Positions 21,766 to 46,947 of a stretch of 47,071 nt of DNA are shown here, in pieces (the stretch's first letter is position 1; each line of letters opens with the position of its first letter). Origin of the DNA: a virus. Its lineage: Duplodnaviria; Heunggongvirae; Uroviricota; Caudoviricetes. A program made the position numbers and the translations under genes. Where the stretch lies: the IMG/VR virus record IMGVR_UViG_3300030037_000008, positions 1 to 47,071 of that record; one strand, 5' to 3'. The notes under the pieces are model-generated. The model was not told where the DNA came from. It did no database searches and saw only the letters and a list, made by a program, of their open reading frames with translations.

Positions 21766-22203
21766 ATGCACACTCCTGAAGACATAGCAATAAGGAAAAT
21801 TCAAAGTGGTGCTATAGCATGGGCATTTGAAAGATTTGATGCAGCGCTCAGCAACTACACTGGATTAGCTGATCTTATGTTTTCAGAGAGTGATGCTGAA
21901 TCTTTAAAAGAAGAATTCTTAAATGAAGATTATCTAGCAAATAACAAACGAAAACTATTAGATCATTATAGGCAACTTTGTACTCTATTTAAAACGACAG
22001 CTGGTATTTCGTTGTTTCCTGAATTGACAAGAGGATTAGGTGATCCTAATGTACCGAACATGACATTAATAATGTTAGATCAAGCTGCTAAACTTATGCT
22101 CACTAATAGTGTAAGTTATATATTAGAAGATCCTTATCGAGATGTATCTGAAATAATAAAGAATGTTGAACATGAAACTAGTGTAAAGAAAATGTATGGA
22201 TGA
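21766..22203 (+). CDS. Hypothetical protein (ends KMYG)
   Basis: ORF tiling; carries the C-terminal tag. Confidence 0.6.
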   Translation: MHTPEDIAIRKIQSGAIAWAFERFDAALSNYTGLADLMFSESDAESLKEEFLNEDYLANNKRKLLDHYRQLCTLFKTTAGISLFPELTRGLGDPNVPNMTLIMLDQAAKLMLTNSVSYILEDPYRDVSEIIKNVEHETSVKKMYG

Positions 22204-23752
22204 AGATATGAATAGAATTTTAGTGATAGGTGGCTTGACAAATCCAGCAATGGTAAGCTATATGTTTGATCAAATCGAACAAGGCAAAACTGTAATGAAT
22301 GTCGATATGGAATTTAATCATTCAGCTCTACATAAAGAAGATATTCCTAAAAGAGTAATTGAATTACAGAATAACGAATCATACTGTTTTATTCCATTAG
22401 CTAGTGGATCTGCTACTCTTACTCATAATACTGAAAAATTTGATTCAATGTCTGTACATCCTAATACTAATTATCTAGGAACAGCTTATCATACTAGAAA
22501 TGAGTATGCAGATACTAATGATGTATATGATGAGATGTTTAGCTACACTTCTATATTACTTTATTATAGACCTACGTTAGTATTTTTTGCAGACTTTAAT
22601 TTATCTCAGACTCGCATTGCTAAGACAGTTAAATACTATTTTGATTCTCTTAAACTAGCAAAAGATATAAGCAACATCGACAACAAAACATTTAGTAATG
22701 AATCATTATCGATGCATCATCAAATACCAGGTTCAGAAGATCCTCGTAACTATTCATTAAGCCAAATGTTTCCTCTTAGTGCTACTATTCCAGATGATGC
22801 ATCTATAGGTGATTGTTATTTTAGTACAAATTATTATAGTACATTTAATTTAGGAATCCAAAGTACAGCTAACGTCACTATCGATACTTCTGAGTATTTC
22901 GTTGATAAAAATAATTATTATCGCCAGTTCCTAGAGCTTTCTGCTTATCATTGTAGTGATACATATATGCAGTTACATGTTCCTGGAAATTTAATAACTC
23001 ATACTATTATTAATTTTGTAGCTATACATGGATCTAAGTTAATTATATCTGATGCTGAATACATGAAAAAGTATAAAGTAATGGCTGAAGGAGAAGCACT
23101 TGATTCACGAAGACTATCAGTATTTAAATCAAAGATTATTAATCCTAAAGTAGTAGTTATAAGCTCTACTGATGTGTATGGACCTAATGATAAAGTAGAT
23201 GAAAATTCTAAATTAGCTCCTTACAATATGAATGGAATAGTACATATGTCTGCAGAGTTTATTGCTAAAAGTTTAAATGAAGACAAAACTTATATCATCA
23301 GAGCTCCTAAGATTTTAAGTAAAGAGTATGCTCAGTTTTATGAGATAGTACAAGATTTTATGACAGATGATTCTTTACCATGCGTTTACATAAAAAATAA
23401 GAAAGATTCTTACATATCTACTGCTAATTTTATAAAAGCTCTTGAAACTATATTTGACCAAGAACACGAAGTAATTAATCTTTCTAGCAATATTTTTAAG
23501 AATAGAACTGAAATATACCTCGATATATTAAATAAGCTAGAATCTATTGTTTCTGATACTAACAACAGAACATTTAAAGTTAGTCAATTACCAGTAGATG
23601 ATACTGACACTAATATTCGTAATCAAGCCACTAGCATTCATAATGTTATGGTAGATGATTATGAGAAGTGCATAGAATCAATCGTACAGTATAACTATAA
23701 AGAATACAATAACAATCAATCCAGAGCTGCTTCAATGGCTCTGTATAAATAA
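22196..23752 (+). CDS. Degenerate NAD-dependent epimerase/dehydratase (extended SDR) fold protein
   Basis: RILVIGG start, KVVVISSTDVYG, PY..., SAE, YIIRAPKI, VINLSS; the GxxGxxG and YxxxK motifs are not intact. Confidence 0.6.
   Translation: MDEDMNRILVIGGLTNPAMVSYMFDQIEQGKTVMNVDMEFNHSALHKEDIPKRVIELQNNESYCFIPLASGSATLTHNTEKFDSMSVHPNTNYLGTAYHTRNEYADTNDVYDEMFSYTSILLYYRPTLVFFADFNLSQTRIAKTVKYYFDSLKLAKDISNIDNKTFSNESLSMHHQIPGSEDPRNYSLSQMFPLSATIPDDASIGDCYFSTNYYSTFNLGIQSTANVTIDTSEYFVDKNNYYRQFLELSAYHCSDTYMQLHVPGNLITHTIINFVAIHGSKLIISDAEYMKKYKVMAEGEALDSRRLSVFKSKIINPKVVVISSTDVYGPNDKVDENSKLAPYNMNGIVHMSAEFIAKSLNEDKTYIIRAPKILSKEYAQFYEIVQDFMTDDSLPCVYIKNKKDSYISTANFIKALETIFDQEHEVINLSSNIFKNRTEIYLDILNKLESIVSDTNNRTFKVSQLPVDDTDTNIRNQATSIHNVMVDDYEKCIESIVQYNYKEYNNNQSRAASMALYK
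23744..23751 (+). promoter_or_regulatory. Possible late promoter TATAAATA before tmk
   Basis: Exact T4 late consensus overlapping the upstream stop codon. Confidence 0.4.
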
Positions 23753-23761
23753 AAGGAAAAT

Positions 23762-24415
23762 ATGAGCAATACACATTCAATTAAGACTGTACCTAAATTC
23801 ATTGTAGTTGAAGGTATCGATGGTAGTGGAAAGACTACTGCATGTGAAAAGATTAAAGAGATCCTTTTTGAAGAAGGAGTATTCTCTAATATTACAAGAG
23901 AACTTGGTGGCACAGAATTTTCAAGTAAAGTAAGAGATCTATTCTTACATGAAGATACTAACGTTTCAGCAACTACTGAATTGCTTTTAATCTCCGCTGG
24001 TCGTAGAGACCACATTGAGAATGTAGTAGTACCTACAATGGAAAATAATCTTTGGGTTATCTGTGATCGTAGTTATTTTAGTACTATCGCATACCAAGGT
24101 GCTAACGGTGGTGCTTCTCCAGAGGTGCTAAGAACTGTCAATGAAATAGCGATGGGTGGTATCAAACCAGATTTACTAATTTACTTAGATGTTACTAGTG
24201 AAGTTTCTAGTATACGTCGATTAAATAGAACAGATGATAATGATAAGATGGATGCTTTAGATAATGAATACTATGACAATGCTAGATTTTGTCTTAAGTC
24301 TTTAGTCCAAGCAGCTCCGTTTGCTCATGAACTTGATGCAATACAAAATGATCAAGATGAACTTAAAGAGTTGATGAGACCTTTAGTGAAATCTATCATA
24401 GAGCCATGCAATTAA
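23762..24415 (+). CDS. tmk: Thymidylate kinase
   Basis: FIVVEGIDGSGKTT, TRELGG, ELLLISAGRRDH, VICDRSYFSTIAYQG, KPDLLIYLDV. Confidence 0.96.
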   Translation: MSNTHSIKTVPKFIVVEGIDGSGKTTACEKIKEILFEEGVFSNITRELGGTEFSSKVRDLFLHEDTNVSATTELLLISAGRRDHIENVVVPTMENNLWVICDRSYFSTIAYQGANGGASPEVLRTVNEIAMGGIKPDLLIYLDVTSEVSSIRRLNRTDDNDKMDALDNEYYDNARFCLKSLVQAAPFAHELDAIQNDQDELKELMRPLVKSIIEPCN

Positions 24416-24795
24416 ATTACAATGAAGTTCTTGACCGTGTAAAAGAAATACATGGTCAAGAAATACATGACTATTTTGAAAGTAGTATGTACAATATTGT
24501 TAAATCGGATGAATCTCGTAACATACATAATGAAATGGATAACTCTTTCATTAGTATAGTTACAACATTATTAGACCTTGAGATTCCTCTTAAAACTTTG
24601 TATAGCTATGTTGATATGTCTAAACAATTAGGAGCTTATGCTGACAGTATATCTTTATTAAGATGTGTAGGAGTTTATAGCCTAAGCCATGAAAGACTTG
24701 AATTTGAGATAAAAAGTAGAGATGAAGAATGTCTTGTATCACGTATTAGTGGTGCAATGCTAGACATAGACTCAGCGAGTAAATTGTATGAATAA
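24406..24795 (+). CDS. Hypothetical protein (ends KLYE)
   Basis: Overlap-coupled ORF; carries the C-terminal tag. Confidence 0.6.
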   Translation: MQLNYNEVLDRVKEIHGQEIHDYFESSMYNIVKSDESRNIHNEMDNSFISIVTTLLDLEIPLKTLYSYVDMSKQLGAYADSISLLRCVGVYSLSHERLEFEIKSRDEECLVSRISGAMLDIDSASKLYE

Positions 24796-25249
24796 ATTTG
24801 CCAAGTTAGTTAATGCTTCATATAAAGAAACTGAACCAGACATAGTACATGACTATAAAATTAAATGTGTACTTTTAGCGATTACAGAACAAACTAAATA
24901 TGCACTAGGATTATCAGATTATGCTACTAAAACTATGACAGATTCGTTATATACTCTTCATAAAAATCATGATCTTGACCAAGTGTTTGAAGGTGTTAGT
25001 GAAATTTATAGCTATATGTTTTCAAGTATTAGCATAAATTTGATGATGAGTTACACAAATATGTTTCCTGATTTAGTAGATGCCAAATATCTTAACGCTA
25101 TGCTACATAATTTTATTGATTCTCTTGACAAATTAAGTGAAGATAAAAAGTTTACGTACGTAGCTACTATAAGAAAATCATCAGACTTAACTGAATTCAT
25201 TAATGATGAAATAGAAGATAAATTTAAAAAATTGGAGATGTACTCATGA
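24788..25249 (+). CDS. Hypothetical protein (ends EMYS)
   Basis: Overlap-coupled ORF; carries the C-terminal tag. Confidence 0.6.
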   Translation: MNKFAKLVNASYKETEPDIVHDYKIKCVLLAITEQTKYALGLSDYATKTMTDSLYTLHKNHDLDQVFEGVSEIYSYMFSSISINLMMSYTNMFPDLVDAKYLNAMLHNFIDSLDKLSEDKKFTYVATIRKSSDLTEFINDEIEDKFKKLEMYS

Positions 25250-25602
25250 TCACTCATAAAACCGCACTGTTAGTTAAACGTGAGGAGGCATCCGGTAAGT
25301 ATGTAGTTAATAGACTACATTATGGAATTGAACCAGAAGAAGTATTACCTACACTTAACGAATGGTACAATGATCCTGTTTATGTTTCTGATCTTTTAGG
25401 TATGTTTAACGGAGAGCTTAATACTTTATCCGGTAGTCACATATCACCGGAACATAACTATGAAGAATTTCCTAGAGAGTACAATACTAACATGCATATT
25501 GATTCATTTTATCAAGTAATTCTTGGTTCTAATATGGATGTCGAATATGTATATTACTTTGATGATCATGAAAAGGAGTGGATTAGTTGTGTTTCCTATT
25601 AG
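25246..25602 (+). CDS. Hypothetical phage protein
   Basis: ATGA overlap; LHYG..P..V..TLNEWY...EYVYYF pattern common in phage early proteins. Confidence 0.6.
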   Translation: MITHKTALLVKREEASGKYVVNRLHYGIEPEEVLPTLNEWYNDPVYVSDLLGMFNGELNTLSGSHISPEHNYEEFPREYNTNMHIDSFYQVILGSNMDVEYVYYFDDHEKEWISCVSY

Positions 25603-25629
25603 TTAAATACATCTTAATTAGGCAACAAA

Positions 25630-25953
25630 ATGAGTAACATTATAAAGCACTACACTAATCAGAACATGGATAACGCAGAGGACGTCCTCTCAGAAAAAAC
25701 TCTAAAGGAATTCATTAATGATAACTATACAGACTATCTTCCAAAGATTTATGATAAAGTTGGAATGATTGGAGTATTAAAGAAAGTGTTATGTGACAAA
25801 GAAAGCTATTACAAATTTTTAATAAAGAGTGGGTACGAAGATCCAGAAGTTTTAGTAGAAGATCTATTTAAACTTTATGACAAATCTTTATTCACTAGTA
25901 AAGTAAGGAAGTGTATAAAATCTTATTATGAAAAAGAAGACGATAACAGCTGA
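25630..25953 (+). CDS. Hypothetical protein upstream of the gp59-like gene
   Basis: ORF tiling only; sits in the T4 gene 33 position but shows no recognisable gp33 similarity. Confidence 0.55.
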   Translation: MSNIIKHYTNQNMDNAEDVLSEKTLKEFINDNYTDYLPKIYDKVGMIGVLKKVLCDKESYYKFLIKSGYEDPEVLVEDLFKLYDKSLFTSKVRKCIKSYYEKEDDNS

Positions 25954-26557
25954 AGATTGCTATAGACTCTTTCACAAGTATACAAATCTTATTGGTTCGA
26001 ACAGAAGAGTTAGAGCCATTAAGAATTTTGAAAATGCGAAGAGTAAGCCAGCATGGATAGAATTTGAAAAGTTTGCATTTAAATGTACCAGACTTAATGG
26101 TGCTTTAGATCCTGAATTTATGATTGAGCTTCTTGCAAAAGATGCAGAAGGATTCTTTTCACCCAAACTACTTAATACTCAACGCTCCATTCAAAAATAC
26201 AAACTTGCAGTACAGGTCAAGGAATCCAAAGAAACTATTCCAGAAGCTATACAAAGATCACTGTCTTATATTAAATCATTAGGTATTGGTTGGGAAGCTT
26301 ATCTCAATTCTGGATTGTATGCTATTCCAAAGATAATTAAAGATAAGATGGCAGGTAAGATTTCACCTTATCTTATTTATATTGATCCTTCGATAATTGG
26401 TCATATGAAATCAACATACCCCCAAGATACATACATTGAATTTTGCAAATCATTAGAAGAAGACTATGACTCTATGGTAGCTAAAATAAATGCAGAAACT
26501 GATCCAAAATTTAAATTCGTAAAAAATAACATTAAGAAGATTCTAAATAGAATTTAG
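25928..26557 (+). CDS. gp59-like helicase loader
   Basis: Size, ITAEDCYRLF ~ T4 IDGKSVYKLY, KIIKDKMAGKISPYLIYID ~ YIFKLLQSNIISFETFILLD, and position directly before the gp32-like gene. Confidence 0.6.
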   Translation: MKKKTITAEDCYRLFHKYTNLIGSNRRVRAIKNFENAKSKPAWIEFEKFAFKCTRLNGALDPEFMIELLAKDAEGFFSPKLLNTQRSIQKYKLAVQVKESKETIPEAIQRSLSYIKSLGIGWEAYLNSGLYAIPKIIKDKMAGKISPYLIYIDPSIIGHMKSTYPQDTYIEFCKSLEEDYDSMVAKINAETDPKFKFVKNNIKKILNRI

Positions 26558-26588
26558 TTGTTTTTTAACTAACATCTTGTCCAATATG

Positions 26589-26597
26589 GATAAATAC
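26589..26597 (+). promoter_or_regulatory. Putative late promoter GATAAATAC before the gp32-like gene
   Basis: Intergenic GATAAATA core. Confidence 0.5.
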
Positions 26598-26661
26598 CAA
26601 TACCACTGAATGCATGTGGTCTAAAAACAAAATAAAAACAAATAACAAATAGGTAACAACT

Positions 26662-27720: not shown

Positions 27721-27730
27721 GTAACAAATG

Positions 27731-27764: not shown

Positions 27765-27778
27765 ACATACATCAATCA

Positions 27779-29384: not shown

Positions 29385-29688
29385 ACTTTATACTTTATCT
29401 TATTTTAAAAAAAGATTAAGAGATGGTAACTATAATTCAATTACGTTGTTTAATAGTTATAGTGAAGACGATCAACGATACTGGACAATTCTAATTGGTG
29501 AAGATAATATCCAATGTACTTGCTTAAAGTTCATGAATGAAATGAGTCAGATTGAATTTAGTTTTCACTTTACTGATAACAAACAAACTCTTAATATGGA
29601 CAAGAAAGTTACTACTCATTCAATGAATGTAATTCTCGAGTTATTAAATAACATTACTAAAAAGGATAATACTGATGCATCAAAATAA
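29374..29688 (+). CDS. Hypothetical phage protein
   Basis: Overlap-coupled; SYFKKRLRD motif. Confidence 0.6.
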   Translation: MKNKLYTLSYFKKRLRDGNYNSITLFNSYSEDDQRYWTILIGEDNIQCTCLKFMNEMSQIEFSFHFTDNKQTLNMDKKVTTHSMNVILELLNNITKKDNTDASK

Positions 29689-30394
29689 TATCTTCAATGA
29701 TAACGTGCCACCCCTCACAGATAGAGAAATTATAGCAGAGATCTTTAGTAATACTGAAGGTCATATCTCTGGATTTTCTTTACCTTATGATTCAGATTCA
29801 ATTCCAGCTCAACCTTGTAATGAAATTGAGTTAGATGATGACTTCAATCCATTGTTCTCTACTATGCCTGTACATAAATCAGTATACGATAGAGAGTTCA
29901 TGGATCTTAATGATGCCTTTAACGAGAATGATGGTTATGCTGGTCTAGAACCTTTAATCAAAATGGGAGATATTTGGGAAATTAACAGAGCTGAAATTGT
30001 ATATGGCCCGCTGCCTGAGCAATATAAAGTTATGATAGTTTTGTCTGACACTGTAGGCGGCGTTCTTTCTAATGACAATGTAGTAGTTGCTATGGTTCAT
30101 GATGATCTTAAACAAAATTATACTTTGATTGAAAGAGAAGGTAAATCTATTATTAAATATATCGATGCTACACAAGAACATGTAATGTCTGAAGTATCTA
30201 TGTATAAGACGGTTATGGATGATGGTAAAACTATTCATACATTTCCTGGTGACGAACATATGTTAGTAGGTATTGAAATGATATCTGATGGTGGTAATTG
30301 TGGAGTAGAATTACCATCATTCAAAGTTTTAAATTTAAACACCTATCATATGAATACATATCAGAACTTAAGTGTTTCTTTAAAGAACAAATAA
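29675..30394 (+). CDS. Hypothetical acidic protein
   Basis: ORF tiling. Confidence 0.55.
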   Translation: MHQNNIFNDNVPPLTDREIIAEIFSNTEGHISGFSLPYDSDSIPAQPCNEIELDDDFNPLFSTMPVHKSVYDREFMDLNDAFNENDGYAGLEPLIKMGDIWEINRAEIVYGPLPEQYKVMIVLSDTVGGVLSNDNVVVAMVHDDLKQNYTLIEREGKSIIKYIDATQEHVMSEVSMYKTVMDDGKTIHTFPGDEHMLVGIEMISDGGNCGVELPSFKVLNLNTYHMNTYQNLSVSLKNK

Positions 30395-30409: not shown

Positions 30410-31339
30410 ATGTCAGAATACATTGAACCAGATGCACCGTGGATAGAGAAGTATAAACCTAAAACTATTGATGATCTAGCATTAGATGATAATCTTAAAG
30501 AAATGTTTAACGGATATGTAGCTAATAATAACATTCCTTTCATGACACTTTCTGGATCAGCAGGAATAGGTAAAACTTCTTTAGCTAATATACTTATTGA
30601 TGAGTTAGATGAAGCGACTCCACTGTATATCAATGCCTCTGAGAACAATGGTATTGATATGATTAGATCAGAGCTCAAAGACTTTGTAGAAAAGCAAGGT
30701 TTTGGAGGATTGAAGATAGTAATACTTGATGAAGCTGACGGACTAAGTCCTAATGCTCAAGGTGCTTTAAGACAAATAATGCAAACAAGTTTAGATGATA
30801 CCCGATTTATTCTTACATGCAATTACCCACAGAAAATCATTGATCCTATCTTTTCTCGAGCTCCATTAATTAATATCCCATGTGATAAGAAAGACATCAT
30901 CAAACGCTGTATGTTTATTCTTAAATCAGAAGGTATTAAACTTACTAGAGAAGATGTAGGTAGAGTTTCTGGTATCGTTAATAAATACTTTCCGGATATC
31001 AGAAAGGTAGTACAAATTTTAGAACGCTGTTATATTTCTGGTCAATACAGAGATGTAGCAATGCGAGCTAATAATGGATCAGCACATGATCTTATTCTTG
31101 ATAAGATTCTTGCTGTTAAATCCTTCAAAGATCTTAATATTATTAGAGAGTTCTGGATGACAAATGAAGCTAGTTTTGAAAAGGACTACTCTGCATTAGC
31201 AAGTAGTCTTTATAATCGAATAGTTACTACGTCTGACGATGCTGAATTACTTATAACTTTAAGTTCACATATATATCAATTAGATAATGCTGTAGATCAA
31301 GAACTACAGTTCCATGCTTTAACATTGGAGTTATTATGA
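30410..31339 (+). CDS. Clamp loader AAA+ subunit (gp44/RFC-like)
   Basis: PWIEKYKPKTIDD, GSAGIGKTS, INASENNGIDMIR, ILDEADGL, FILTCNY, FPDIRK. Confidence 0.95.
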   Translation: MSEYIEPDAPWIEKYKPKTIDDLALDDNLKEMFNGYVANNNIPFMTLSGSAGIGKTSLANILIDELDEATPLYINASENNGIDMIRSELKDFVEKQGFGGLKIVILDEADGLSPNAQGALRQIMQTSLDDTRFILTCNYPQKIIDPIFSRAPLINIPCDKKDIIKRCMFILKSEGIKLTREDVGRVSGIVNKYFPDIRKVVQILERCYISGQYRDVAMRANNGSAHDLILDKILAVKSFKDLNIIREFWMTNEASFEKDYSALASSLYNRIVTTSDDAELLITLSSHIYQLDNAVDQELQFHALTLELL

Positions 31340-32594: not shown

Positions 32595-32945
32595 ATGTCA
32601 TATGATGGACCCAAACCAAAGTTCTGTGGTGGAGCTTATAAAGTAGATGGACAGTATGGCGAATACTTTACTATCTATTTTTCACAAGCAGATCTTAAAC
32701 TAATGCTCGAAGAATCAGATCATCGTGGTGTTAAAGTATCCATGAATGCTAAACGTACTCAAACTGAAGGTAGTACTACTCATTACCTTAAAGTTCTTGA
32801 ACGTAGAGAAACTTCTACTACTCCAGTTAAACCAGTAGAACAAGAAAGAGATATCTCAAGCTTATACACTCCTCAGTTCCTAGACACTAACGCTGCAGTA
32901 GCATCTAAGATGCTGGATGATATCGACGATGACATCCCCTTTTGA
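32595..32945 (+). CDS. Small SSB-like protein with a bacterial SSB C-terminal tail DDDIPF
   Basis: Beta-rich N-terminal ~70 aa, linker, and terminal DDIDDDIPF. Confidence 0.6.
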   Translation: MSYDGPKPKFCGGAYKVDGQYGEYFTIYFSQADLKLMLEESDHRGVKVSMNAKRTQTEGSTTHYLKVLERRETSTTPVKPVEQERDISSLYTPQFLDTNAAVASKMLDDIDDDIPF

Positions 32946-34796: not shown

Positions 34797-35225
34797 ATGA
34801 GTATCAATGCACCAAACTGTAATATAAAATCTAAATTCAATGGAGCTAATGTGAACACTAGGCATAAATCTACTATGATTTTAAATCTAGAATATGCAGA
34901 TGCTCATGATCATTTTAACGAGGAATGGCTTCTGATTAAAGAGAAGTTCCAATACACTACAGATAATGTACAAAATCTAATAGAGTTATTTCCACATCAT
35001 TTTTATATGTGGTATAAACCAGATAGAATCGATGCTGACATTATACTAGAAGGAAAACTTGCTCTTGGTTGTCTAAAATATATTGATTTGTGGTACAAAG
35101 ATTATGAAAAATTAGCTGAGCATATAGAAGAATATAATAGTCGTGGATTTTCAAATCTATATCCACATTTCAAATTTAAAACTAAACAAGAATTTATAGT
35201 GGAGTCTATGTATGGGACCAAGTAA
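34797..35225 (+). CDS. Trp/Phe-rich repeat protein (ends MYGTK)
   Basis: FNEEW, FYMWYKPDRID, YIDLWY units resemble the next gene. Confidence 0.6.
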   Translation: MSINAPNCNIKSKFNGANVNTRHKSTMILNLEYADAHDHFNEEWLLIKEKFQYTTDNVQNLIELFPHHFYMWYKPDRIDADIILEGKLALGCLKYIDLWYKDYEKLAEHIEEYNSRGFSNLYPHFKFKTKQEFIVESMYGTK

Positions 35226-35667
35226 CGTACAGTATGATCTAGAATGGTTCATCAGTAATGCACATAAAATAGAACAATGGTTTGATCCTAATTTATTCAA
35301 TGCTAATCAAGGATATGCTTATCTGTTTAGTACATGTATGGATAGCTTTGATTTATGGTGGAAGCATGTATCATCACCTGACGACGACTACGATAATTCT
35401 TATATAAGATGTGCACAAGGTACTGAAAGATTTGATGATTGGTTTATCCCAAATAGATTCGATTGGAAACATGTCTCTGAATTCTTATGTATACATTTAG
35501 CTGACAAGTTTGATAAATGGTTTGATCAAAATACATTCAATACTGAAAATGCTAAAGATGAATTGTTTGAATATTGTTATGAACATATAGACAAATGGTT
35601 TGATCCTATTGAGTTTGATGGTATGAGTAAAGAAGAATATTTAGTCAATAAATTATATGGATATTGA
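35212..35667 (+). CDS. Trp/Phe-rich repeat protein (ends KLYGY)
   Basis: ~26-aa units WFDPNLFN, WFIPNRFDW, WFDQNTFN, WFDPIEFD. Confidence 0.65.
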   Translation: MGPSNVQYDLEWFISNAHKIEQWFDPNLFNANQGYAYLFSTCMDSFDLWWKHVSSPDDDYDNSYIRCAQGTERFDDWFIPNRFDWKHVSEFLCIHLADKFDKWFDQNTFNTENAKDELFEYCYEHIDKWFDPIEFDGMSKEEYLVNKLYGY

Positions 35668-35696
35668 TTGTACATTATCACAAGTGGTTGTATAAT
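35668..35696 (+). promoter_or_regulatory. Early promoter TTGTAC-17-TATAAT
   Basis: Context gattgtacatt; consensus -10. Confidence 0.8.
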
Positions 35697-35727
35697 AAGA
35701 TTATCAAATTAAAAAAAGGACAATACA

Positions 35728-37678: not shown

Positions 37679-37710
37679 AAAGGGACAATGTGATTTTACA
37701 TTGTCCCTTT
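37679..37710. terminator. 13-bp perfect hairpin overlapping the next promoter
   Basis: aaagggacaatgt / acattgtcccttt. Confidence 0.75.
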
Positions 37711-37722
37711 GTATGTTATCTT
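37694..37722 (+). promoter_or_regulatory. Early promoter TTTTAC-17-TATCTT with extended -10 TG
   Basis: Same spacing as the other early promoters; implies the true ATG is at 37729. Confidence 0.6.
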
Positions 37723-37728
37723 AATATT

Positions 37729-38439
37729 ATGAAAAAACTATTAAGCACATTTAGATACTACACAAGATTAACCTCTTATGGTAGGGATCAGTTTGAGAGA
37801 ATACAAGCGATGACTGATATCGAAAAGTACGAGTACAGACACTTAGTAACTAATAAAAAGATAGAAAATACTAATAATGTCATGACTACTGTAAGGATAA
37901 TCATGTCAGATGTCCAGTTTAAGAATTGTTTCAATCTATATGATGGTATGGAAGTACAAACTTCTCCACGTAATGCACCCGCTACATTCTCTTATGGAGA
38001 TCATGATGAAAGAAAGTCATTCAATGGAACGATACTTAAAGCTATAATAAGAAACGATCTATTGTATGAAGATTTCTTATTTGGATTCAGAATGATAACT
38101 TCGAAGGAATACAAAACAAACTTTCCTAACTTTAATAAATGTCTATTTAAAATAACACATGAAAATTTAAACAGATACTTTGATACGATGGGTATAATCG
38201 TAAGAACTAATTACGGAAAGCCTATTGAACAGAATAAGTTAGGTAGATACGTAGACATGGAATTTTGGAAACTTGATAGAATTTCAATGGCATTAGGATT
38301 AGCAATGCTAAGTGGATACGAATTGGATATAGAATTGGATAAAATTCTAACCTTCAATGATCAAGACTTTGAAACAATGTTTTTTGATATCAAAGAGTAC
38401 ATAGAAATTAACTCAGCAATTATAGGAATGTATAATTAA
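37729..38439 (+). CDS. Hypothetical protein (ends GMYN; start moved from GTG 37690)
   Basis: In-frame ATG just downstream of the promoter. Confidence 0.6.
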   Translation: MKKLLSTFRYYTRLTSYGRDQFERIQAMTDIEKYEYRHLVTNKKIENTNNVMTTVRIIMSDVQFKNCFNLYDGMEVQTSPRNAPATFSYGDHDERKSFNGTILKAIIRNDLLYEDFLFGFRMITSKEYKTNFPNFNKCLFKITHENLNRYFDTMGIIVRTNYGKPIEQNKLGRYVDMEFWKLDRISMALGLAMLSGYELDIELDKILTFNDQDFETMFFDIKEYIEINSAIIGMYN

Positions 38440-38584: not shown

Positions 38585-38588
38585 CTGA

Positions 38589-39188
38589 ATGTTCAAATAT
38601 CTATATAACAAATTCATGTACAGAGGCATTCCTAAGATGGTAGCCAAGGAAGCAATGGAACTTCACTCTGTATACGGAGTACATCCTGACATATTAAGAC
38701 TTCGCATGCATAAGGATTTTTCTGTTCAACAAAATGTAGAGTACTACATCATAATAACAGCACTTGTTAGTAAGATTAAATGTTCTTCACTATTCCAGTC
38801 AGGTATGAAAGATGACAAGGAGATGTGTGAATACATTGAGTTATGTGGAGTCCAAGCAGGAGACTTTATCATAAAACTTTTTAAGTTAAATATTTCAAGT
38901 AAAGATGTAATAGCTCCTATGTATAATTACAGTGGAGCATATAGAACAGATGAGAGTTACCTTGTCCATTTGGAAAGATATATAGAAGCACTTACAACTT
39001 GTATCATTGATGTTACTGTCGACAATCTTAGTTTCTTGAATGCTAAAGCTTATGATGATATTTTTAAAGCTATATGTTCAGGAGTTAAACTTGATTTAGA
39101 AAGAGTTCAGACAGGTGATGCTAAGTATTTGATTGATGTTGTTAAACTACATAACGGGTCTCAGAGTGCAAAACAACTTTATGCTTAA
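38589..39188 (+). CDS. Hypothetical protein (ends QLYA)
   Basis: ORF tiling; carries the C-terminal tag. Confidence 0.6.
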   Translation: MFKYLYNKFMYRGIPKMVAKEAMELHSVYGVHPDILRLRMHKDFSVQQNVEYYIIITALVSKIKCSSLFQSGMKDDKEMCEYIELCGVQAGDFIIKLFKLNISSKDVIAPMYNYSGAYRTDESYLVHLERYIEALTTCIIDVTVDNLSFLNAKAYDDIFKAICSGVKLDLERVQTGDAKYLIDVVKLHNGSQSAKQLYA

Positions 39189-39798: not shown

Positions 39799-39827
39799 TT
39801 GTACATTAAAGAAAAGAAGTTTATCTT
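39799..39827 (+). promoter_or_regulatory. Early promoter TTGTAC-17-TATCTT
   Basis: Context gattgtacatt. Confidence 0.75.
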
Positions 39828-39846
39828 ATATCAATAAGGAGAACGA

Positions 39847-40440
39847 ATGAATATTTTATACATACACGGATTCGCATCATCTGGATCAAACAGTTCTAAA
39901 GTAAAAACAATAAATAAAATTTATCCAGAAGCAAATATATTCGCACCTGATTTAAAACATGATTTAGTGCAAGATGTACAATTTCTCAAAGAGATCTTAG
40001 TTTATCTAGATGTAGATATTATAATCGGAAGTTCGATGGGAGGTTATTTAGCAACAATACTAGCAACAGAGTTCAATGTTCCAACTCTATTAATTAATCC
40101 GTTAGTCGACACTCAGTATTTATTAGACAAAGCAGGCGCAAGGTATAGAAACTATTCTACAGGTAAAGACTTCTACTTCAGTAACGCTAATTATAATACT
40201 GATGTATTAACAAATGATAATGGAAGAAATGGAAGATATTCAAGTGATGTTAATGATATTAATAAGATAACAGTAGCTTTAGGAACAGAAGACAAAGAGT
40301 TAGATCATACTTTAGCATTAGATAAATACAAGCAATGTACCATCCTAAAATATGAAGATGATCATCGTTTCAGTAAATCTTTTTTACCAGCACTACTAAA
40401 ATTTCAACAACAATGTGAAGTAAACAAACTATATAACTAA
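39847..40440 (+). CDS. YqiA/YcfP-family alpha/beta hydrolase (ends KLYN)
   Basis: LYIHGFASS, GSSMGG nucleophile elbow, LINP, DDHRF. Confidence 0.9.
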   Translation: MNILYIHGFASSGSNSSKVKTINKIYPEANIFAPDLKHDLVQDVQFLKEILVYLDVDIIIGSSMGGYLATILATEFNVPTLLINPLVDTQYLLDKAGARYRNYSTGKDFYFSNANYNTDVLTNDNGRNGRYSSDVNDINKITVALGTEDKELDHTLALDKYKQCTILKYEDDHRFSKSFLPALLKFQQQCEVNKLYN

Positions 40441-40934: not shown

Positions 40935-40941
40935 TAATTTA

Positions 40942-41349: not shown

Positions 41350-41354
41350 AGTGA

Positions 41355-41383
41355 TTGTACATTCACGTAATGTGATATATACT
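41355..41383 (+). promoter_or_regulatory. Early promoter TTGTAC-17-TATACT
   Basis: Context gattgtacatt. Confidence 0.8.
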
Positions 41384-41413
41384 ATCTATACAAACTAAAT
41401 AAGGAGATACAAC

Positions 41414-42496
41414 ATGAACAACATCAACATTAACAAACTCTTTCTTTCTGATCGCTTAGTAACAATGTTCCGTAAAGAAAAGATTAGTGCTAAAGATGCT
41501 CTACAACATCTTATGGATGCTAGAAAGAAAGAGCATATCTACAAATCAGATTTCAATCAATTACTCTCACCGCTTAAACGTGGAATGGACTATGCATCAA
41601 CCATTGCTGATAAAGCAGTTACATCTTCTTCAGTAGATCCTGAAAATAGTAGATCACTTTGGACAGCTGGTTTAAGATTCCCTTATCAATTGAATCATGT
41701 CAATAAGTATTTAAAGACTACACTTCCTAAATTTAAAGATCAACTTCCTGAAGAAGAATACACAATCGCTTTGGAATGGGGACAAGCATGGCAAGCTGTA
41801 GGAGAATTAGTAAAGGAATTGAAACCCTTTATAGAAAACAGCAGACCTCCTACCGAAAAGCAATTGGCAAGACAAGCTGAGCAAGCAGAACTTGATACTC
41901 TTAAAGCATCTAATCATAGTGGTGCAGTTCTTAAAGTGTTAGCAGAAAAGTTAGATGCAATTGCTAAAGGATATAAGAAACAGATTATCGAAAGTCTAAT
42001 TCTTGATATTACAAGAGCAGCTTATGATAACTTGGCATTCCTCCAAAATCCTGATAATGCAAAGCAGATTAGACGATACAGTTACGACTACAACTTGATC
42101 AACCAAACATCTCATAGAGTTTATGCTTTAGCTGATCAGTTTGAAGATAAAGTTAAGAAGATGGCTCAAAACAAATACGACACTATCAGTATTCAGTTTA
42201 TTGCTAAAGCTCTTAGTAAAGTTGAATCAATCATTGTTAGAAAAGGACTTGATGCTGAAATTGAAGTAGTAGCCAAAACATCAAGTAACAACGCTGCAAT
42301 CGAAGCAATTCTAAAATTTGTCTTTACTGATAAATCTGAGTTCAATCTAAACTCTAAGTTGAAGATCAATTGGAGATGGGGAACCGGTCACTTCTATCAG
42401 TACCCTTCACTCTTCCAAAACATCGTAATGCCAGATGGTACAAAGATTAAAAGATTCAATGAGTTGGAAATGAATAAAAACTTCGCAACAGTTTAA
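41414..42496 (+). CDS. Hypothetical protein (360 aa)
   Basis: AAGGAG SD; long ORF; no motif recognised. Confidence 0.65.
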   Translation: MNNININKLFLSDRLVTMFRKEKISAKDALQHLMDARKKEHIYKSDFNQLLSPLKRGMDYASTIADKAVTSSSVDPENSRSLWTAGLRFPYQLNHVNKYLKTTLPKFKDQLPEEEYTIALEWGQAWQAVGELVKELKPFIENSRPPTEKQLARQAEQAELDTLKASNHSGAVLKVLAEKLDAIAKGYKKQIIESLILDITRAAYDNLAFLQNPDNAKQIRRYSYDYNLINQTSHRVYALADQFEDKVKKMAQNKYDTISIQFIAKALSKVESIIVRKGLDAEIEVVAKTSSNNAAIEAILKFVFTDKSEFNLNSKLKINWRWGTGHFYQYPSLFQNIVMPDGTKIKRFNELEMNKNFATV

Positions 42497-42505
42497 GTTA
42501 AAACT

Positions 42506-42537
42506 AAATAGATCAAATTTAAATATTTGGTCTATTT
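42506..42537 (+). terminator. Rho-independent terminator
   Basis: aaatagatcaaat / atttggtctattt followed by a T-rich run. Confidence 0.75.
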
Positions 42538-42541
42538 GTTT

Positions 42542-42570
42542 GTTTACTTATTGTATAGGTGTAGTATATT
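42542..42570 (+). promoter_or_regulatory. Early promoter GTTTAC-17-TATATT
   Basis: GTTTAC is the T4 early -35; 17-bp spacer. Confidence 0.65.
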
Positions 42571-42590
42571 AAAAATAAAAAGGAAGTGTA

Positions 42591-43022
42591 ATGAAAATGT
42601 TCAATGGCGAAGAAGTACCGGTTACTACAGAAGAACATATCGAGCTATGTAGAAAGAAAGGTTTAGATATTGACAAATATACAAACAGTCATTACTCTGA
42701 AGCAAAGGTTCGTAACTATGCAAAATCATTACTGCTTGGTATCGATACATCCAAGTATGATAAGTATGATCTGCCTGCTATTGTTCTTATTGTTCTATGC
42801 ACTATTGTAAAAGAAGGACAAGACATTCCATCTGAAAAAACTCTTGCAATGCTAGCTACATGTGAAACTGGAGTTCTTATGTCAGTAATGGAATTACTTC
42901 AAGCTGGATTACATGTCTCACATGATTCAATTATTTTTGATCCTACTCTGTCAGATGTTCAACGTAAGAAAGAAGTAGTACTTATTCTAGATTCTTTCAA
43001 ATCTTTAACCACTTATAACTAA
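42591..43022 (+). CDS. Hypothetical helical-repeat protein
   Basis: KGLDIDKY / LGIDTSKY / EGQDI / AGLHVS repeats. Confidence 0.6.
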   Translation: MKMFNGEEVPVTTEEHIELCRKKGLDIDKYTNSHYSEAKVRNYAKSLLLGIDTSKYDKYDLPAIVLIVLCTIVKEGQDIPSEKTLAMLATCETGVLMSVMELLQAGLHVSHDSIIFDPTLSDVQRKKEVVLILDSFKSLTTYN

Positions 43023-43023
43023 T

Positions 43024-43704
43024 ATGAAACTGATAGACTTTCCAAGTAGAGATGAAGCTATTATTAAAGCTATTAAAGATTACAACCCTGTGTATGAATA
43101 CTTTTCTAAAGAGCCTCGAGGTAAAACTTCATCATACAATCTTCCTGATCCAGCAAACAATACTGATCATACACTATTAAAGATTAACTACAAAGATTAT
43201 AACAACACTAAGTATCTAGAATCTCATGGACTTCAGACATTTGTTATTAACACTGAATATGTAGCTCCTTCACCAGAACAACAAGAAAAGATTGATATGA
43301 TACGTACTACTTATGCAATGTATGGTGATGATCAAATGGAAGGAGCGGATGGTAATCTATCTACTGGATATTACATAACAAGTATTTTCAATATGAGAAG
43401 TAATGGATATGTTGAAATGCCTAAAGCTCTACACGATGAAAGATTTACTAGACATGATACACCGGATGAAGACGAGTATATTGACGATACTGAACTTATT
43501 TTCTATCATACTAATGGAGTGTCTGAACCTATAGATTTTTATATGGGGTGCACATATAAAGATACACATGGAGAAAGAGTAACAGCCGGATTCGATACTG
43601 CTCACTATAATGATAATGCTTCTACTCAATGTACATCATTCTCTTCAAAGGAAATAGATAAAACATTGTTACAAATTGTTAGATTATTGGGTGTACAGTC
43701 TTAA
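43024..43704 (+). CDS. Hypothetical protein
   Basis: ORF tiling; GFDTAH motif. Confidence 0.55.
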   Translation: MKLIDFPSRDEAIIKAIKDYNPVYEYFSKEPRGKTSSYNLPDPANNTDHTLLKINYKDYNNTKYLESHGLQTFVINTEYVAPSPEQQEKIDMIRTTYAMYGDDQMEGADGNLSTGYYITSIFNMRSNGYVEMPKALHDERFTRHDTPDEDEYIDDTELIFYHTNGVSEPIDFYMGCTYKDTHGERVTAGFDTAHYNDNASTQCTSFSSKEIDKTLLQIVRLLGVQS

Positions 43705-43719
43705 AATGTGTGGTATCTT
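43691..43719 (+). promoter_or_regulatory. Early promoter GTGTAC-17-TATCTT with extended -10
   Basis: 17-bp spacer, TGn before the -10. Confidence 0.65.
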
Positions 43720-43746
43720 AATTAAAACAAATATAAGGAATACCTA

Positions 43747-44865
43747 ATGAGTATAGAGTTAATTGAAAAATACAACGAAGCATACCGCAACGGAGAAGTT
43801 CTAGTAAGTGATGCAGAGTACGACGCATTATGTGAAGAGTTTAATTACGAACCTGGAGTTGGAGCTGAAATTTCAACTGGTGATAAAGTAACTCTTCCTA
43901 TTCCAATGGGTTCACTTAACAAAGTTAAATCTCTTGAAGATCTTATCAAATGGTCAGCTCCTCATCCAAACGAGACCTTAGCTGCTACACCAAAATATGA
44001 TGGTTGTTCAGTTCTTCTTAAAGCTGTAGGCAGAACTATTAAAGCAGTGTATACTAGAGGAGATGGCAAAGAAGGTAGAAACATTCTTCCATTACTTGAT
44101 AATCACAAACAGATCCAAGCGCTCAATGAAATGATGCAAATGGCTAATCCTGAAGAAAGATACATTCCTTCAATGGATGAGTTCTATATCATTGGTGAGA
44201 TCATTATTCCAGAAGATCTATTCAAATCAAAATACTCTTCAACCATGAAAAACTCTCGTAACATGGTAGCTGGTCTTATTAATAGATCAGAAGCTCAAGC
44301 TCCTATTCATGATTGTATGATTATGTTATTTGATATCAAAGGCGATACAAAACAAGCATATCTAAACAAAACCAATAAGATTGAAATTCTTAACTTTTGG
44401 AACCATGAATACATTCAAACACCAATCCTGGTAAGTTGTGTAGCAGATCATCACATGGAAGATAAGATGATGAAGATGTGGCAAAACATGGACACTAAAG
44501 TTAAATGTGATGGCATCGTAGTAGAATTCAATAGCTCATTATTAAGAGATGAACTTGGATTAGAAACTGGTAAATTGAATCCTGCTTTTGCCCGAGCGTT
44601 TAAGCCACCAGTTGAAGAACAAAAAACTACAACAGTTGATAAGATTGATTGGCGAGTTAGTAAAGATGGTAAGTGCATTCCAGTTATCAATCTTGTTCCA
44701 ATAGATCTTGATGGAGTAACAATCAGTAACGTAACGGCCCATAACGCTTCCTTTGTACAAGATAACGAGATTAGAGTTGGATCTCTAATAACTATCAAAC
44801 GATCCGGTGGAGTTATACCCACCATTGTTAAAGTAACCAATAACGATGATGTAACGGAGTTTTAA
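43747..44865 (+). CDS. ligA: NAD+-dependent DNA ligase, short form (domain Ia, adenylation and OB only)
   Basis: YNEAYRNG...SDAEYDAL, PMGSLNK, PKYDG, TRGDG, DGIVV, ARAFK, VTAHNA, RSGGVIP, then stop. Confidence 0.9.
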   Translation: MSIELIEKYNEAYRNGEVLVSDAEYDALCEEFNYEPGVGAEISTGDKVTLPIPMGSLNKVKSLEDLIKWSAPHPNETLAATPKYDGCSVLLKAVGRTIKAVYTRGDGKEGRNILPLLDNHKQIQALNEMMQMANPEERYIPSMDEFYIIGEIIIPEDLFKSKYSSTMKNSRNMVAGLINRSEAQAPIHDCMIMLFDIKGDTKQAYLNKTNKIEILNFWNHEYIQTPILVSCVADHHMEDKMMKMWQNMDTKVKCDGIVVEFNSSLLRDELGLETGKLNPAFARAFKPPVEEQKTTTVDKIDWRVSKDGKCIPVINLVPIDLDGVTISNVTAHNASFVQDNEIRVGSLITIKRSGGVIPTIVKVTNNDDVTEF

Positions 44866-44866
44866 G

Positions 44867-45250
44867 ATGAGTTTAGGTTTAGGTAGATTAGAACAATCAT
44901 TAGCTGATTTAGAAAATCATGACAATACGGCTCATGCTCAGACAATGGCTAATCTATCTAATATAGAGACCATGGTGAAAGTGATGGCATCTAAATTAGA
45001 ACAAACTAATGAAACATTAGATGCCACTGCAAACAAACTTACTAGTGTTTCGGAAGAAAACAAGAAGCTTAGAGATATTCTTAAAATGTTGTACTTTGAT
45101 TACGATGGTGTTTATTATAAAGGAGACGATTACGATGTCTATGATTCAGCATCAAGTGATTACTATACAAAAATGGTAATTTGGAAAGATTTTCCTGAAA
45201 TCAAAGCTCTTAACTTTGTAGAAGAAACTTGTAAGGAGATGTACAACTAA
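44867..45250 (+). CDS. Coiled-coil hypothetical protein (ends KEMYN)
   Basis: Heptad-rich N-terminal half; carries the C-terminal tag. Confidence 0.6.
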   Translation: MSLGLGRLEQSLADLENHDNTAHAQTMANLSNIETMVKVMASKLEQTNETLDATANKLTSVSEENKKLRDILKMLYFDYDGVYYKGDDYDVYDSASSDYYTKMVIWKDFPEIKALNFVEETCKEMYN

Positions 45251-45669
45251 TGGATACTGACAATATGACTCGTGAAGAGTTAGTCAAAGCTCTAATAGAT
45301 GTTACATCAAGTAGAGATGTATTCTTTAAAAGAATTACTCAAATTGAATTTGACCAGCGTATGAGAGCTGAACAATCAAAAGTTAAAACCTACGACCTTG
45401 AAGATGTAGGTAGTCCCTATGAATCATATAGAGAAATGGTTGAACAGAAAGACGATGCTTCAGGTGCAGGTGATTGGGTAGAAATTGAAGATTTAAGAGA
45501 TGCTGAATTTAGATATGATGAACTTAAGAAATTTCTAATTGATTTACAATCAGATTCAGAAGGTGTAGCTGGTTATCATTTGAATGGTGATGTAGCTCCA
45601 TGGTGTGAGTTTGAAGAGATAGTTAATTTAGGCTATGTAGAAAATATATGTAAGGAGCTATACACATGA
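45250..45669 (+). CDS. Hypothetical protein (ends KELYT)
   Basis: TAATG overlap; GVAGYHLNGDVAPW motif. Confidence 0.65.
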   Translation: MDTDNMTREELVKALIDVTSSRDVFFKRITQIEFDQRMRAEQSKVKTYDLEDVGSPYESYREMVEQKDDASGAGDWVEIEDLRDAEFRYDELKKFLIDLQSDSEGVAGYHLNGDVAPWCEFEEIVNLGYVENICKELYT

Positions 45670-46229
45670 AAAAACTTAAAGATGATGCTCATAAATCATT
45701 CTCTTCATTTAGAAAAGTAGATCCATGTATTTTGCATCTTGCTACTGTTGATAAATGCAGTGATTGGTTTTTTAAATATCAATATGAACTACGTGGAAAA
45801 GATTTAAGAGCAATTGCTACATGCTACTGGTATCCTGAGAAGTATAAGTGGGATGAAGATGTAATTACATATAACGGTACTGAACACATGCCTACGATTC
45901 ATGATAGTATAAGTAACAGAATTACATTTACATCTAATGAATTAAGATCAGTGAAGAAAGCTCTTAAGTATGATCACAGTAGAACGGGATTAATAGAAAC
46001 TTCTATAATAAGAGTAACACCCAATGGATCGAGTTGTTGGACAAGAGATGTATTCGAATGTGAATTTCAAACTCCACAAGATGCATACATTTCTACTATC
46101 ACTAGTATAGCAAATGGAATACCTCACTATAGAGACATGCTTACAACTATTATTGAAGAAGTGTGGACACTAGAAAAAATACTCAACTTTACAAGAAACT
46201 ATGCAATGACAAGGAAACTATACGCATGA
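45666..46229 (+). CDS. Hypothetical protein (ends KLYA)
   Basis: ATGA overlap; carries the C-terminal tag. Confidence 0.6.
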   Translation: MKKLKDDAHKSFSSFRKVDPCILHLATVDKCSDWFFKYQYELRGKDLRAIATCYWYPEKYKWDEDVITYNGTEHMPTIHDSISNRITFTSNELRSVKKALKYDHSRTGLIETSIIRVTPNGSSCWTRDVFECEFQTPQDAYISTITSIANGIPHYRDMLTTIIEEVWTLEKILNFTRNYAMTRKLYA

Positions 46230-46459
46230 GAAAAGAATACGAATTAGTACATACTAACAACAGTTATGTGAAACAAACATCAGATGAGTCAGGAAATCCT
46301 TTACCTCTTATGCAAGGGGATAAAGAAGATCATACTCATGTAGTTAACACTGAAGTTTATGCTTCAGAAACATCACAGCATCAAGTAAGCTATTATAAAG
46401 AAGATGGAATTATTAGTCTATTAGCTCCTATTATCCATGTACAAAAGCCTAGTGAGTAG
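46226..46459 (+). CDS. Hypothetical protein (start moved to ATG 46226)
   Basis: ATGA overlap with the upstream stop. Confidence 0.5.
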   Translation: MRKEYELVHTNNSYVKQTSDESGNPLPLMQGDKEDHTHVVNTEVYASETSQHQVSYYKEDGIISLLAPIIHVQKPSE

Positions 46460-46482
46460 TATATTGATCTAACAACAAAGGA

Positions 46483-46947
46483 TTGATTATGGGATCAAGT
46501 AACTTAGTAATACGATACAACAGCGACATAGAGAACACTTACTACTATGATCATTCAGATGATACGATTGTCCAGATCATAGGATTCTCTCATCATGGCA
46601 ATTTAAAGTACAACAAGTATAAGTATGATACTTTATATAGGAAAGTGATATTGTCTGATACAGTATCAAACATGATAAGACTGACCGCTGCTTATGGTGA
46701 ATGGACAAATACAGTAGTTGATGAAATGCGGTCTATGATAAAGTACCATGAGAAAGCAGACTCTGAACATTACAATTGTCTTAAAGAAGTATTCATCGAG
46801 AAAGGATCCAAATTTGAAAAGGAAATAACTCAAGCTACTAATCATCATATAGGTGACTTAGATCCAAGTGTTATGTTCTTAGGAAAATCTGAAGATATTA
46901 CTGGACCCTTTATATACATGCACAAAATAAGGAATCTGTATGCATAA
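46483..46947 (+). CDS. Hypothetical protein (ends NLYA)
   Basis: ORF tiling; carries the C-terminal tag. Confidence 0.6.
   Translation: MIMGSSNLVIRYNSDIENTYYYDHSDDTIVQIIGFSHHGNLKYNKYKYDTLYRKVILSDTVSNMIRLTAAYGEWTNTVVDEMRSMIKYHEKADSEHYNCLKEVFIEKGSKFEKEITQATNHHIGDLDPSVMFLGKSEDITGPFIYMHKIRNLYA

Follow-up and report, generated by a model that had tools for sequence, protein, structure and literature searches.

The HbYX motif, a hydrophobic residue followed by Tyr and any last residue, is found at the C-terminus of proteasome activators such as PAN, Rpt2/3/5, Blm10/PA200 and archaeal Cdc48, and the ...DDLYG tail of p97 is read by PUB and PUL domains. Bacterial SSB docks on a hub through its C-terminal tip, ...DDDIPF, and poxvirus ankyrin-repeat proteins end in a PRANC/F-box-like helix that docks them on one cellular hub. 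The capsid targeting sequence of phage T4 is N-terminal, is present on late-expressed proteins and is removed by the prohead protease. The nearest bacterial precedent for the element described here is the Lon degron of SulA, which ends ...NLYH. Here we analysed a stretch of 47,071 nucleotides (the window) that forms the first part of the 119,584-base virus record IMGVR_UViG_3300030037_000008, in which many proteins end in Leu or Met, then Tyr, then one last residue ([LM]-Y-x-stop, hereafter the Leu-Tyr tag). We lean towards reading this ending as a lineage-specific, portable C-terminal docking tag that is read in trans by one common partner.

The record was estimated to be 59% complete, its GC content is ~33%, and the same genes are present on a 255,591-base metagenome contig. 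Megablast found no near relative in the phage collection, and a helicase query matched no close viral contig. Topoisomerase II relatives at ~50% identity were marine contigs of 57-324 kb encoding gp32, UvsX, a gp41-type helicase, a gp44-type clamp loader and PolB; because its relatives carry these genes, the phage is classed here as a large T4-like bacterial virus. Positions are those of the record, which the window shares up to 47,071.

Frequency, anatomy and level of selection of the Leu-Tyr tag

The gene set comprised 197 open reading frames (ORFs) of at least 40 residues across the 119.6-kb record, chosen greedily, longest first, with limited overlap. The tag counts, and the family searches for candidate readers reported below, cover this record out of the 255.6-kb contig. 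In the window, the tag ended 11 of the 45 rightward genes after position 20671, against 0.25 expected from composition, which gives a frequency of 0.0055 per protein (binomial P = 1.3e-15). A preliminary description of the window had listed these 11 genes and had put the chance expectation at well under one match; both statements hold, with the same endings (KKMYG 22203, MALYK 23752, SKLYE 24795, LEMYS 25249, IGMYN 38439, KQLYA 39188, NKLYN 40440, KEMYN 45250, KELYT 45669, RKLYA 46229 and RNLYA 46947). Two of the near variants that it reported, ESMYGTK (35225) and NKLYGY (35667), were confirmed, both on members of a Trp-repeat family described below; the third, LTTYN (43022), breaks [LM]Y and was excluded.

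Across the record, the tag ended 39 of the 197 ORFs where 1.1 were expected (binomial P = 1e-47). Nine further ORFs carried [LM]Y[G/A] followed by 1-9 extra residues, mostly an acidic extension, which brings the tagged total to ~48 of 197, or about a quarter of the proteins of the record. The register is strict: [LM]Y was followed by exactly one residue 39 times, and was found 0-4 times at each other distance up to 14. Among controls, the motif ended 2 of 607 ORFs discarded from the gene set, preceded ~0.8% of all stops in the six frames, and was present in 0 of 82 ORFs of three related phage loci (those of the topoisomerase II relatives) and in 3 of 233 ORFs of 24 unrelated metagenome loci.

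The tag has a regular layout. An amphipathic helix of 10-16 residues, in many cases starting with an S/T/D-x-x-E cap, leads to [LM]-Y, after which the chain closes with one residue that is small, polar or acidic. Leu-Tyr is preceded by a basic or polar stretch; Lys, Arg, Ser or Glu occupy -2 and -3, and a small or aliphatic residue (V/A/C/S/T) occupies -4. Further back, hydrophobic residues recur at about -7/-8, -10/-11 and -14, whereas positions -12, -15 and -16 hold residues that are acidic or capping. The last residue was S/A/N/G/E/D in 36 of 39 tags (Asp or Glu in 8, His in none), whereas untagged proteins most often end in K, I or L. A leave-one-out position matrix covering the 20 residues before LY in 35 non-paralogous carriers separated tagged from untagged C-termini with an area under the curve of 0.85 (P = 5e-11). 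The same matrix also separated tags from internal [LM]Y sites and recognised the Trp-repeat family, which was absent from its training (P = 8e-4). In 6 of the 9 extended variants, an Asp or Glu directly follows LY[G/A] (LYGDE, LYGED, LYADD, MYGD, LYGDHDEEPPF and LYGETDDRPSY), and we infer that its side chain may stand in for the chain-end carboxylate. The tail can be shared over a greater length by adjacent, unrelated proteins, as had been claimed: BLASTP aligned the neighbours at 44867-45250 and 45250-45669 over their last 21 residues only.

Such an ending could be a nucleotide-level by-product of gene overlap, of ribosome-binding sites or of promoters at gene ends. In agreement with this possibility, in 11 of the 8-nt overlaps the following gene takes its ATG from the TAT-G of the tag, an AAGGAG or AGGAG ahead of the tag explains some of the Lys-Glu and Arg-Ser pairs at -3/-2, and direct matching found three tags that overlap TATAAT or a late-type motif. 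Enrichment nevertheless remained without a neighbouring start, the tagged share being 7/61 and 4/35 in the classes with gaps and 4/17 in genes with no near neighbour. Where gene ends overlap by 4 nt it was 6/16, and where they overlap by 8 nt it was 11/16, so that a count by overlap class across the record, a check proposed in the preliminary description together with the comparison with relatives, gave enrichment in every class. The excess among 8-nt overlaps is a consequence of the tag and not its cause, because the TAT-G of Tyr-[G/A/E/D/V] is taken over as the next ATG.

The composition of the tag was no more favourable to a by-product. All six Leu codons and both Tyr codons were in use, in genome proportions (chi-square p = 0.90 and 0.65, respectively). 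The residue before the penultimate Tyr was L in 29 cases, M in 10, I in 1 and V in 1; the other residues with T in the middle of their codons (Ile, Val and Phe) thus hardly occur there. No tag encodes the phage -35 box TTGTACA, and the six-frame background is low. Overlapping starts, Shine-Dalgarno sequences, TTGTACA and TATAAT/late motifs were ruled out as a sufficient cause by the stratified counts, the codons and direct matching, and we put the probability of a by-product next to nil. Collectively, since the tag shows the codon usage of the genome, is not a feature of spurious ORFs and is enriched in all overlap classes, the data indicate that selection acts on the peptide, as had been argued from the window.

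Two properties of the gene ends were recorded alongside these counts. Overlaps of 8 nt (ATGnnTRR) are an unusual class, seen in 16 gene pairs of the record, 11 of which come from the TAT-G of the tag. Among non-overlapping genes, TAA was rarer as a stop codon in tagged (6/15) than in untagged ones (78/98; Fisher p = 0.003).

Carrier proteins and lineage specificity

BLAST grouped 13 carriers into one family of Trp-rich repeats. When tails were removed and iterative hidden Markov model (HMM) searches were run, only these 13 Trp-repeat paralogues joined and the other 35 carriers remained singletons. A hidden common body fold was ruled out by these two approaches for 35 of the 48 carriers and, given that no relation was found among the 35, the carriers would represent 36 separate families. 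Pfam and PHROGs searches with 20 tagged proteins returned no family except UPF0227 and three sub-threshold matches, and PDB sequence searches with three carriers gave no match. The carriers are soluble proteins; a membrane-like segment was present in 2 of 48, compared with 15 of 149 others. Those located in the window are as follows (ORFan, protein without a recognised family).

21766-22203 (+): 145-aa ORFan ending ...TSVKKMYG; the TAT-G of the tag is the ATG of the next gene (8-nt overlap)
22196-23752 (+): 518-aa putative extended-SDR-like protein, epimerase/dehydratase fold with insertions (ESM Atlas), ending ...SMALYK
24406-24795 (+): 129-aa ORFan ending ...SASKLYE
24788-25249 (+): 153-aa ORFan ending ...KKLEMYS, with Tyr encoded by TAC
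34797-35225 (+): 142-aa member of the Trp-repeat family, with the extended tag ...TKQEFIVESMYGTK
35212-35667 (+): 151-aa member of the Trp-repeat family, with the extended tag ...SKEEYLVNKLYGY
37690-38439 (+): 249-aa ORFan ending ...SAIIGMYN
38589-39188 (+): 199-aa ORFan ending ...QSAKQLYA
39847-40440 (+): 197-aa YqiA/UPF0227 esterase with the tail QQQCEVNKLYN and an early-type promoter upstream
44867-45250 (+): 127-aa ORFan ending ...WKDFPEIKALNFVEETCKEMYN
45250-45669 (+): 139-aa ORFan ending ...WCEFEEIVNLGYVENICKELYT; last 21 residues in common with the preceding protein
45666-46229 (+): 187-aa ORFan ending ...AMTRKLYA
46483-46947 (+): 154-aa ORFan ending ...HKIRNLYA; its TAT-G starts the next gene
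46940-47071 (+): start of a Trp-repeat family gene that continues past the window to genome position 47323 and ends ...TKSELIVSMLYE

The carriers had been described as differing in fold, and the set indeed includes a YqiA esterase, a lead for an extended-SDR-like enzyme, Trp-rich helical repeats and many ORFans. In the esterase (39847-40440), the catalytic residues are present, with GSSMGG, Asp and His intact. QQQCEVNKLYN is an add-on to this enzyme, because the closest YqiA homologues, whose ends had been proposed for comparison, lack the tail and stop ~10 residues before the end of the phage protein. In an AlphaFold model, the tail prolongs the last helix (177-195) with lower confidence. The 518-aa protein at 22196-23752 had no Pfam or PHROG match but resembled extended SDR proteins in ESM Atlas features (0.94) and in structure (TM 0.72-0.79 depending on the target, residues 5-511 aligned). 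This is a lead for an extended SDR epimerase/dehydratase-like enzyme, in which the modelled fold aligns to residue ~511 of 518 and the tail lies beyond it. The Trp-repeat protein at 67884-68324 was modelled as stacked helical hairpins (pLDDT 91.5); a Foldseek search of the PDB with this model returned chance-level helical-repeat matches only and no solved fold. Further along the record, 14 small, mostly acidic tagged genes form a hypervariable array at 103885-108541. Four paralogues of 80-120 aa on the minus strand (genome 57415-58591) have a tail-like ...AVxxLYD or MYG motif near the N-terminus and not at the end; their HMM matches are weak (E 0.3-10) and may be chance.

Core replication and virion proteins had been said to go without the tag, and this was confirmed on named genes of the record. 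The RNR small subunit, thymidylate kinase, clamp loader, ThyA-like enzyme, thioredoxin, nuclease, LigA, helicase, PolB, sigma-like protein, MazG and topoisomerase II are all untagged, as is the virion block at 1-10 kb. A 295-aa protein has a Sigma70 region 4 domain, and strong DUF6267 and DUF7275 matches flank the polymerase/helicase block (12594-13481, 10665-11921 and 18382-19245, all on the minus strand).

The Trp-repeat family allowed a comparison with other phages. Its profile found 354 cluster representatives among 1.84 billion proteins. All 13 of the phage's own paralogues are tagged, versus 1 of 138 non-own proteins among the best 150 of the 354 representatives; within that set, the sole tagged outsider is a protein on a 700-base contig, ending ...SSKQDLICRAMYR. 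The other non-own representatives keep the homologous last helix and end ...IIYKLxxE... or ...ESYDELLIESIK. Because outside family members keep the helix yet lack Leu-Tyr, this comparison indicates that the last helix is ancestral to the Trp-repeat family and that Leu-Tyr-x is peculiar to this phage lineage. A DNA pattern for TKQE[LI]I-x3-[LM]Y-x-stop had 0 matches in viral contigs and matched at chance level only in metagenome contigs, and no Pfam model matched ten outside members of the family. On one Tara Oceans contig, 14 Trp-repeat paralogues (59-165 aa) lie in tandem at positions 803-7582 and end in almost the same 24 residues, YIDIWYDSSKFxxSYDELLIESIK; two 68-aa neighbours on this contig end in a similar ...EDE[YF]LLxSIQ/KID.

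A putative common partner and competing explanations

The presence of the same ending on 35 proteins for which no relation to the Trp-repeat family or to one another was found is as expected if it is matched to something else in the phage or its host. In the docking reading that we favour, the tag would attach ~48 soluble accessory proteins (36 families) to one common partner. The side chains of Leu/Met and Tyr would fit into a pocket of this partner, and a basic group would recognise a carboxylate close by, either that of the chain end or that of the Asp/Glu just after the motif in the extended variants. We infer that a trans-acting reader of this kind exists and that the carboxylate is part of what it reads. 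The partner may be encoded on the remainder of the 255.6-kb contig, or by the host.

Several observations weigh against this reading. The Proteasome, LON_substr_bdg (Lon N-domain), CLP_protease, PDZ_2, gp45-slide_C and Cpn60 families were not detected in the record. Between 108.5 and 119.6 kb, the tag is missing from approximately 35 small genes, of which some follow early-type promoters, and it is therefore not a general feature of early genes. The promoter classes themselves, presented below, are loose patterns. In the Trp-repeat protein at 67884-68324, the tail helix (136-145) was modelled confidently on the protein's own body (pLDDT 89 for the last block), and so in this family the tail may be a structural cap rather than a free handle. 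A Trp lies 16-28 residues (~20) upstream in 9 of 35 non-family tails, versus 12 of 149 untagged C-termini (P = 0.007). Because this Trp is over-represented, part of the tagged set may share a cryptic half-repeat by descent.

The last two observations fit an explanation without any reader, in which the tail is a cis-acting structural cap (half of a Trp-repeat helix) derived from the Trp-repeat family and the carriers are a hidden divergent superfamily or module fusions. The homologous last helix kept in family members of other phages and the 21-residue module shared by the adjacent genes at 44867-45669 are also consistent with it. However, packing in 36 different bodies demands neither Leu-Tyr at a fixed distance nor a small or acidic last residue, and the esterase and SDR-like enzyme folds are complete without the tail. 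In other phages the cap helix occurs without Leu-Tyr, as shown by the count of 1/138 given above, and Leu-Tyr is therefore not needed for the fold. Moreover, the bodies are unrelated by iterative HMM search and the DNA is not conserved. We consider the cap explanation quite unlikely.

A second alternative is a degradation tag, by which accessory proteins would be marked for timed removal by a host or phage AAA+ protease, as the C-terminus of SulA (...HSNLYH) is with the Lon N-domain. The Sul20 degron ends in Leu-Tyr-x, and its Y19 and H20 touch the Lon N-domain (PMC8087443); the Yersinia Smg and SulA degrons end in GLYH and YLYH (PMC11986505), and LarA combines a helix with a short transferable C-terminal degron (PMC10665427). 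Later removal would also fit carriers made early, for which the promoter evidence is thin. Against this, terminal His is the main determinant of the Lon C-terminal degron class and Asp is among its worst last residues (PMC11986505), whereas the 39 tags comprise no terminal His and 8 terminal Asp/Glu, and most extended forms add acidic residues; the Sul20-type His-degron was rejected on these counts. The ssrA/ClpXP C-motif 1, a non-polar ...LAA-type end with a free carboxylate that acidic ends block (PMC11986505), was likewise rejected, the last residue here being S/A/N/G/E/D with Tyr before it. Both Lon and ClpXP disfavour acidic ends (PMC11986505, PMC10665427), and no protease family was found in the record. 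We regard a degron as an unlikely, though still appreciable, possibility.

The time at which carriers are expressed was approached through promoter patterns. A sigma70-like type, (GTGA)TTGTACA-N~17-TATAAT, also seen as (A)GTGATTGTACA - ~17 nt - TATAAT/TATCTT, was found in intergenic regions at 35668-35727, 39799-39846 and 41350-41413 and at genome positions 62598-62658, 88120-88256 and 109497-109568. TTGTACA occurred 13 times in upstream gaps, versus 1.5 expected. A second motif, GATAAATAG/CTAAATA, precedes large rightward genes at 1-10 kb (1243-1308, 2684-2762 and 9535-9574). A promoter of their own could be recognised for nine carrier genes, and in eight it was of the early, sigma70-like type, although these promoter classes are not enriched over shuffled sequence genome-wide. 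This points weakly to early expression of the carriers, and the 'early' half of the label 'early/accessory' given in the preliminary description is thus thinly borne out.

Early expression counts against a capsid-targeting or injection signal, by which tagged proteins would be packed into the head and injected together with the DNA, as the T4 internal proteins are. In favour of such a signal, the hypervariable array at 103885-108541, whose 14 small products are mostly acidic, combines with one short conserved signal to recall the polymorphic internal-protein locus of T-even phages. However, tagged genes lie behind sigma70-like early promoters, and none follows the virion late-type motif except possibly 21766. 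The head would have to take in 48 species of cargo, enzymes of 380-518 residues among them, which is a very high number, and no tagged prohead protease or scaffold was seen in the record. The T4 capsid targeting sequence, N-terminal and cleaved, was rejected as a match for a C-terminal tag on carriers with early-type promoters. We judge head packaging very unlikely.

Sliding-clamp binding, by tails of the T4 gp43/gp55/gp33 type, was considered because this T4-like phage encodes a clamp loader of the gp44 type (30410-31339), and T4 docks several proteins on gp45 by interchangeable C-terminal epitopes (PMC2988020). Those epitopes are hydrophobic and acidic (PMC2988020), unlike the basic or polar stretch that precedes Leu-Tyr. 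The classical clamp clients of this phage carry another tail. The C-terminal fragment of PolB (17088-18389, minus strand) has the ending ...VLDDIMDI, and its alignment with the polymerase of a relative, which ends ...VLCELDDL, extends to the extreme C-terminus of that protein; a LigB-like ligase subunit (HhH + BRCT; genome 47729-48538, plus strand) ends ...EGGIMDI. Because the polymerase and LigB share ...IMDI, the likely clamp tail differs from the Leu-Tyr tag, and ...IMDI is probably the clamp-binding epitope of this phage; the T4-type epitope was rejected for the tag on these ends. Forty-eight clamp clients with no known DNA function would be implausible, and no clamp gene was recognised in the record (no gp45 Pfam match). 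A clamp-binding role for the tag is most improbable.

Another ending, ...DDIPF, of the kind that forms the tip of bacterial SSB, is found on a 116-aa protein (32595-32945, plus strand) and on a 166-aa primase-like protein with a DnaG-type CHC2 zinc ribbon (genome 84619-85119, minus strand). A 380-aa protein (genome 90708-91850, plus strand) ends ...LYGDHDEEPPF, in which the Leu-Tyr tag is combined with a similar acidic-Pro-Phe tip. Several C-terminal codes thus appear to operate in this phage, and Leu-Tyr-x has by far the most carriers. Just upstream of the gp44-like loader, a 239-aa ORF (29675-30394, plus strand) had no match to ClpP, gp45, PDB or Atlas families. Relatives carry a ClpP-like gene at the corresponding position.

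The ending had also been likened to HbYX. If it were a true HbYX tail, it would dock its carriers on a ring of the proteasome kind, whether 20S, HslV or a related one. The last three residues of 39 proteins fit hydrophobic-Tyr-X exactly, but the likeness ends with this three-residue pattern. No Proteasome-family (PF00227) match was found in the record, the carriers are neither ring ATPases nor activators and have no AAA+ domain, in 9 carriers the motif lies 2-10 residues before the chain end, and the phage groups with T4-like bacterial viruses. Literature searches returned nothing relevant on a phage-wide C-terminal motif and no paper linking HbYX to phages. We consider a true HbYX function extremely improbable.

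The docking reading may have a wider meaning, which we put forward tentatively, as a possibility. Large phages might run private 'address-tag' systems, in which a C-terminal peptide particular to the lineage (here helix-[LM]-Y-x-COOH) is recognised by one reader from phage or host, so that new or fast-evolving accessory proteins are connected to shared machinery that localises them, activates them or handles them at set times. In such a system, the Trp-repeat paralogues would be exchangeable target-binding adaptors equipped with the handle. Proteins of undetermined function are the least understood part of phage genomes. If one reader handles about a quarter of the proteins of this phage, it would offer a single experimental handle on dozens of proteins with little-known function. 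Because the tail is short (~15-20 residues) and, as far as its sequence tells, portable, it could act both as a bait for the partner and as a marker sorting phage genes into one functional class.

Comparison with described terminal signals

HbYX and the p97 tail share with the Leu-Tyr tag a hydrophobic-Tyr-X chain end, the freedom of the last residue to be any small one and a probable role for the terminal carboxylate. Here, however, the carriers are ~48 proteins of a bacterial virus that are not ATPases, a conserved amphipathic helix leads up to the motif, and acidic extensions after it are tolerated. The poxvirus ankyrin/PRANC proteins resemble the Trp-repeat paralogues as an expanded viral family of helical repeats with a short, conserved C-terminal helical module; there is no sequence relation between them, and the phage tag is also present on many non-repeat proteins.

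Among phage systems, the T4 internal proteins and their locus offer the likeness of a short conserved address on fast-evolving, otherwise unrelated small proteins encoded in arrays. The T4 signal is N-terminal, cleaved and late, unlike the C-terminal tag behind early-type promoters. The T4 clamp epitopes and the SSB tip are short interchangeable C-terminal peptides by which unrelated proteins reach one partner, as is proposed for the tag, and the phage itself has ...IMDI and ...DDIPF tails. The tag differs from them in its Leu-Tyr-x end, in carriers that are ORFans or of metabolic type and not replication proteins, and in a number of carriers ~10 times higher.

The Sul20, Smg and LarA degrons, from bacteria, resemble the tag as transferable C-terminal peptides with a Leu-Tyr-x end, in LarA with a helix before it; they are read by a single hub, the Lon N-domain. 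The His that defines these degrons is absent from the phage tag (0/39), in which Asp and Glu are common, both as last residues (8/39) and in the acidic extensions.

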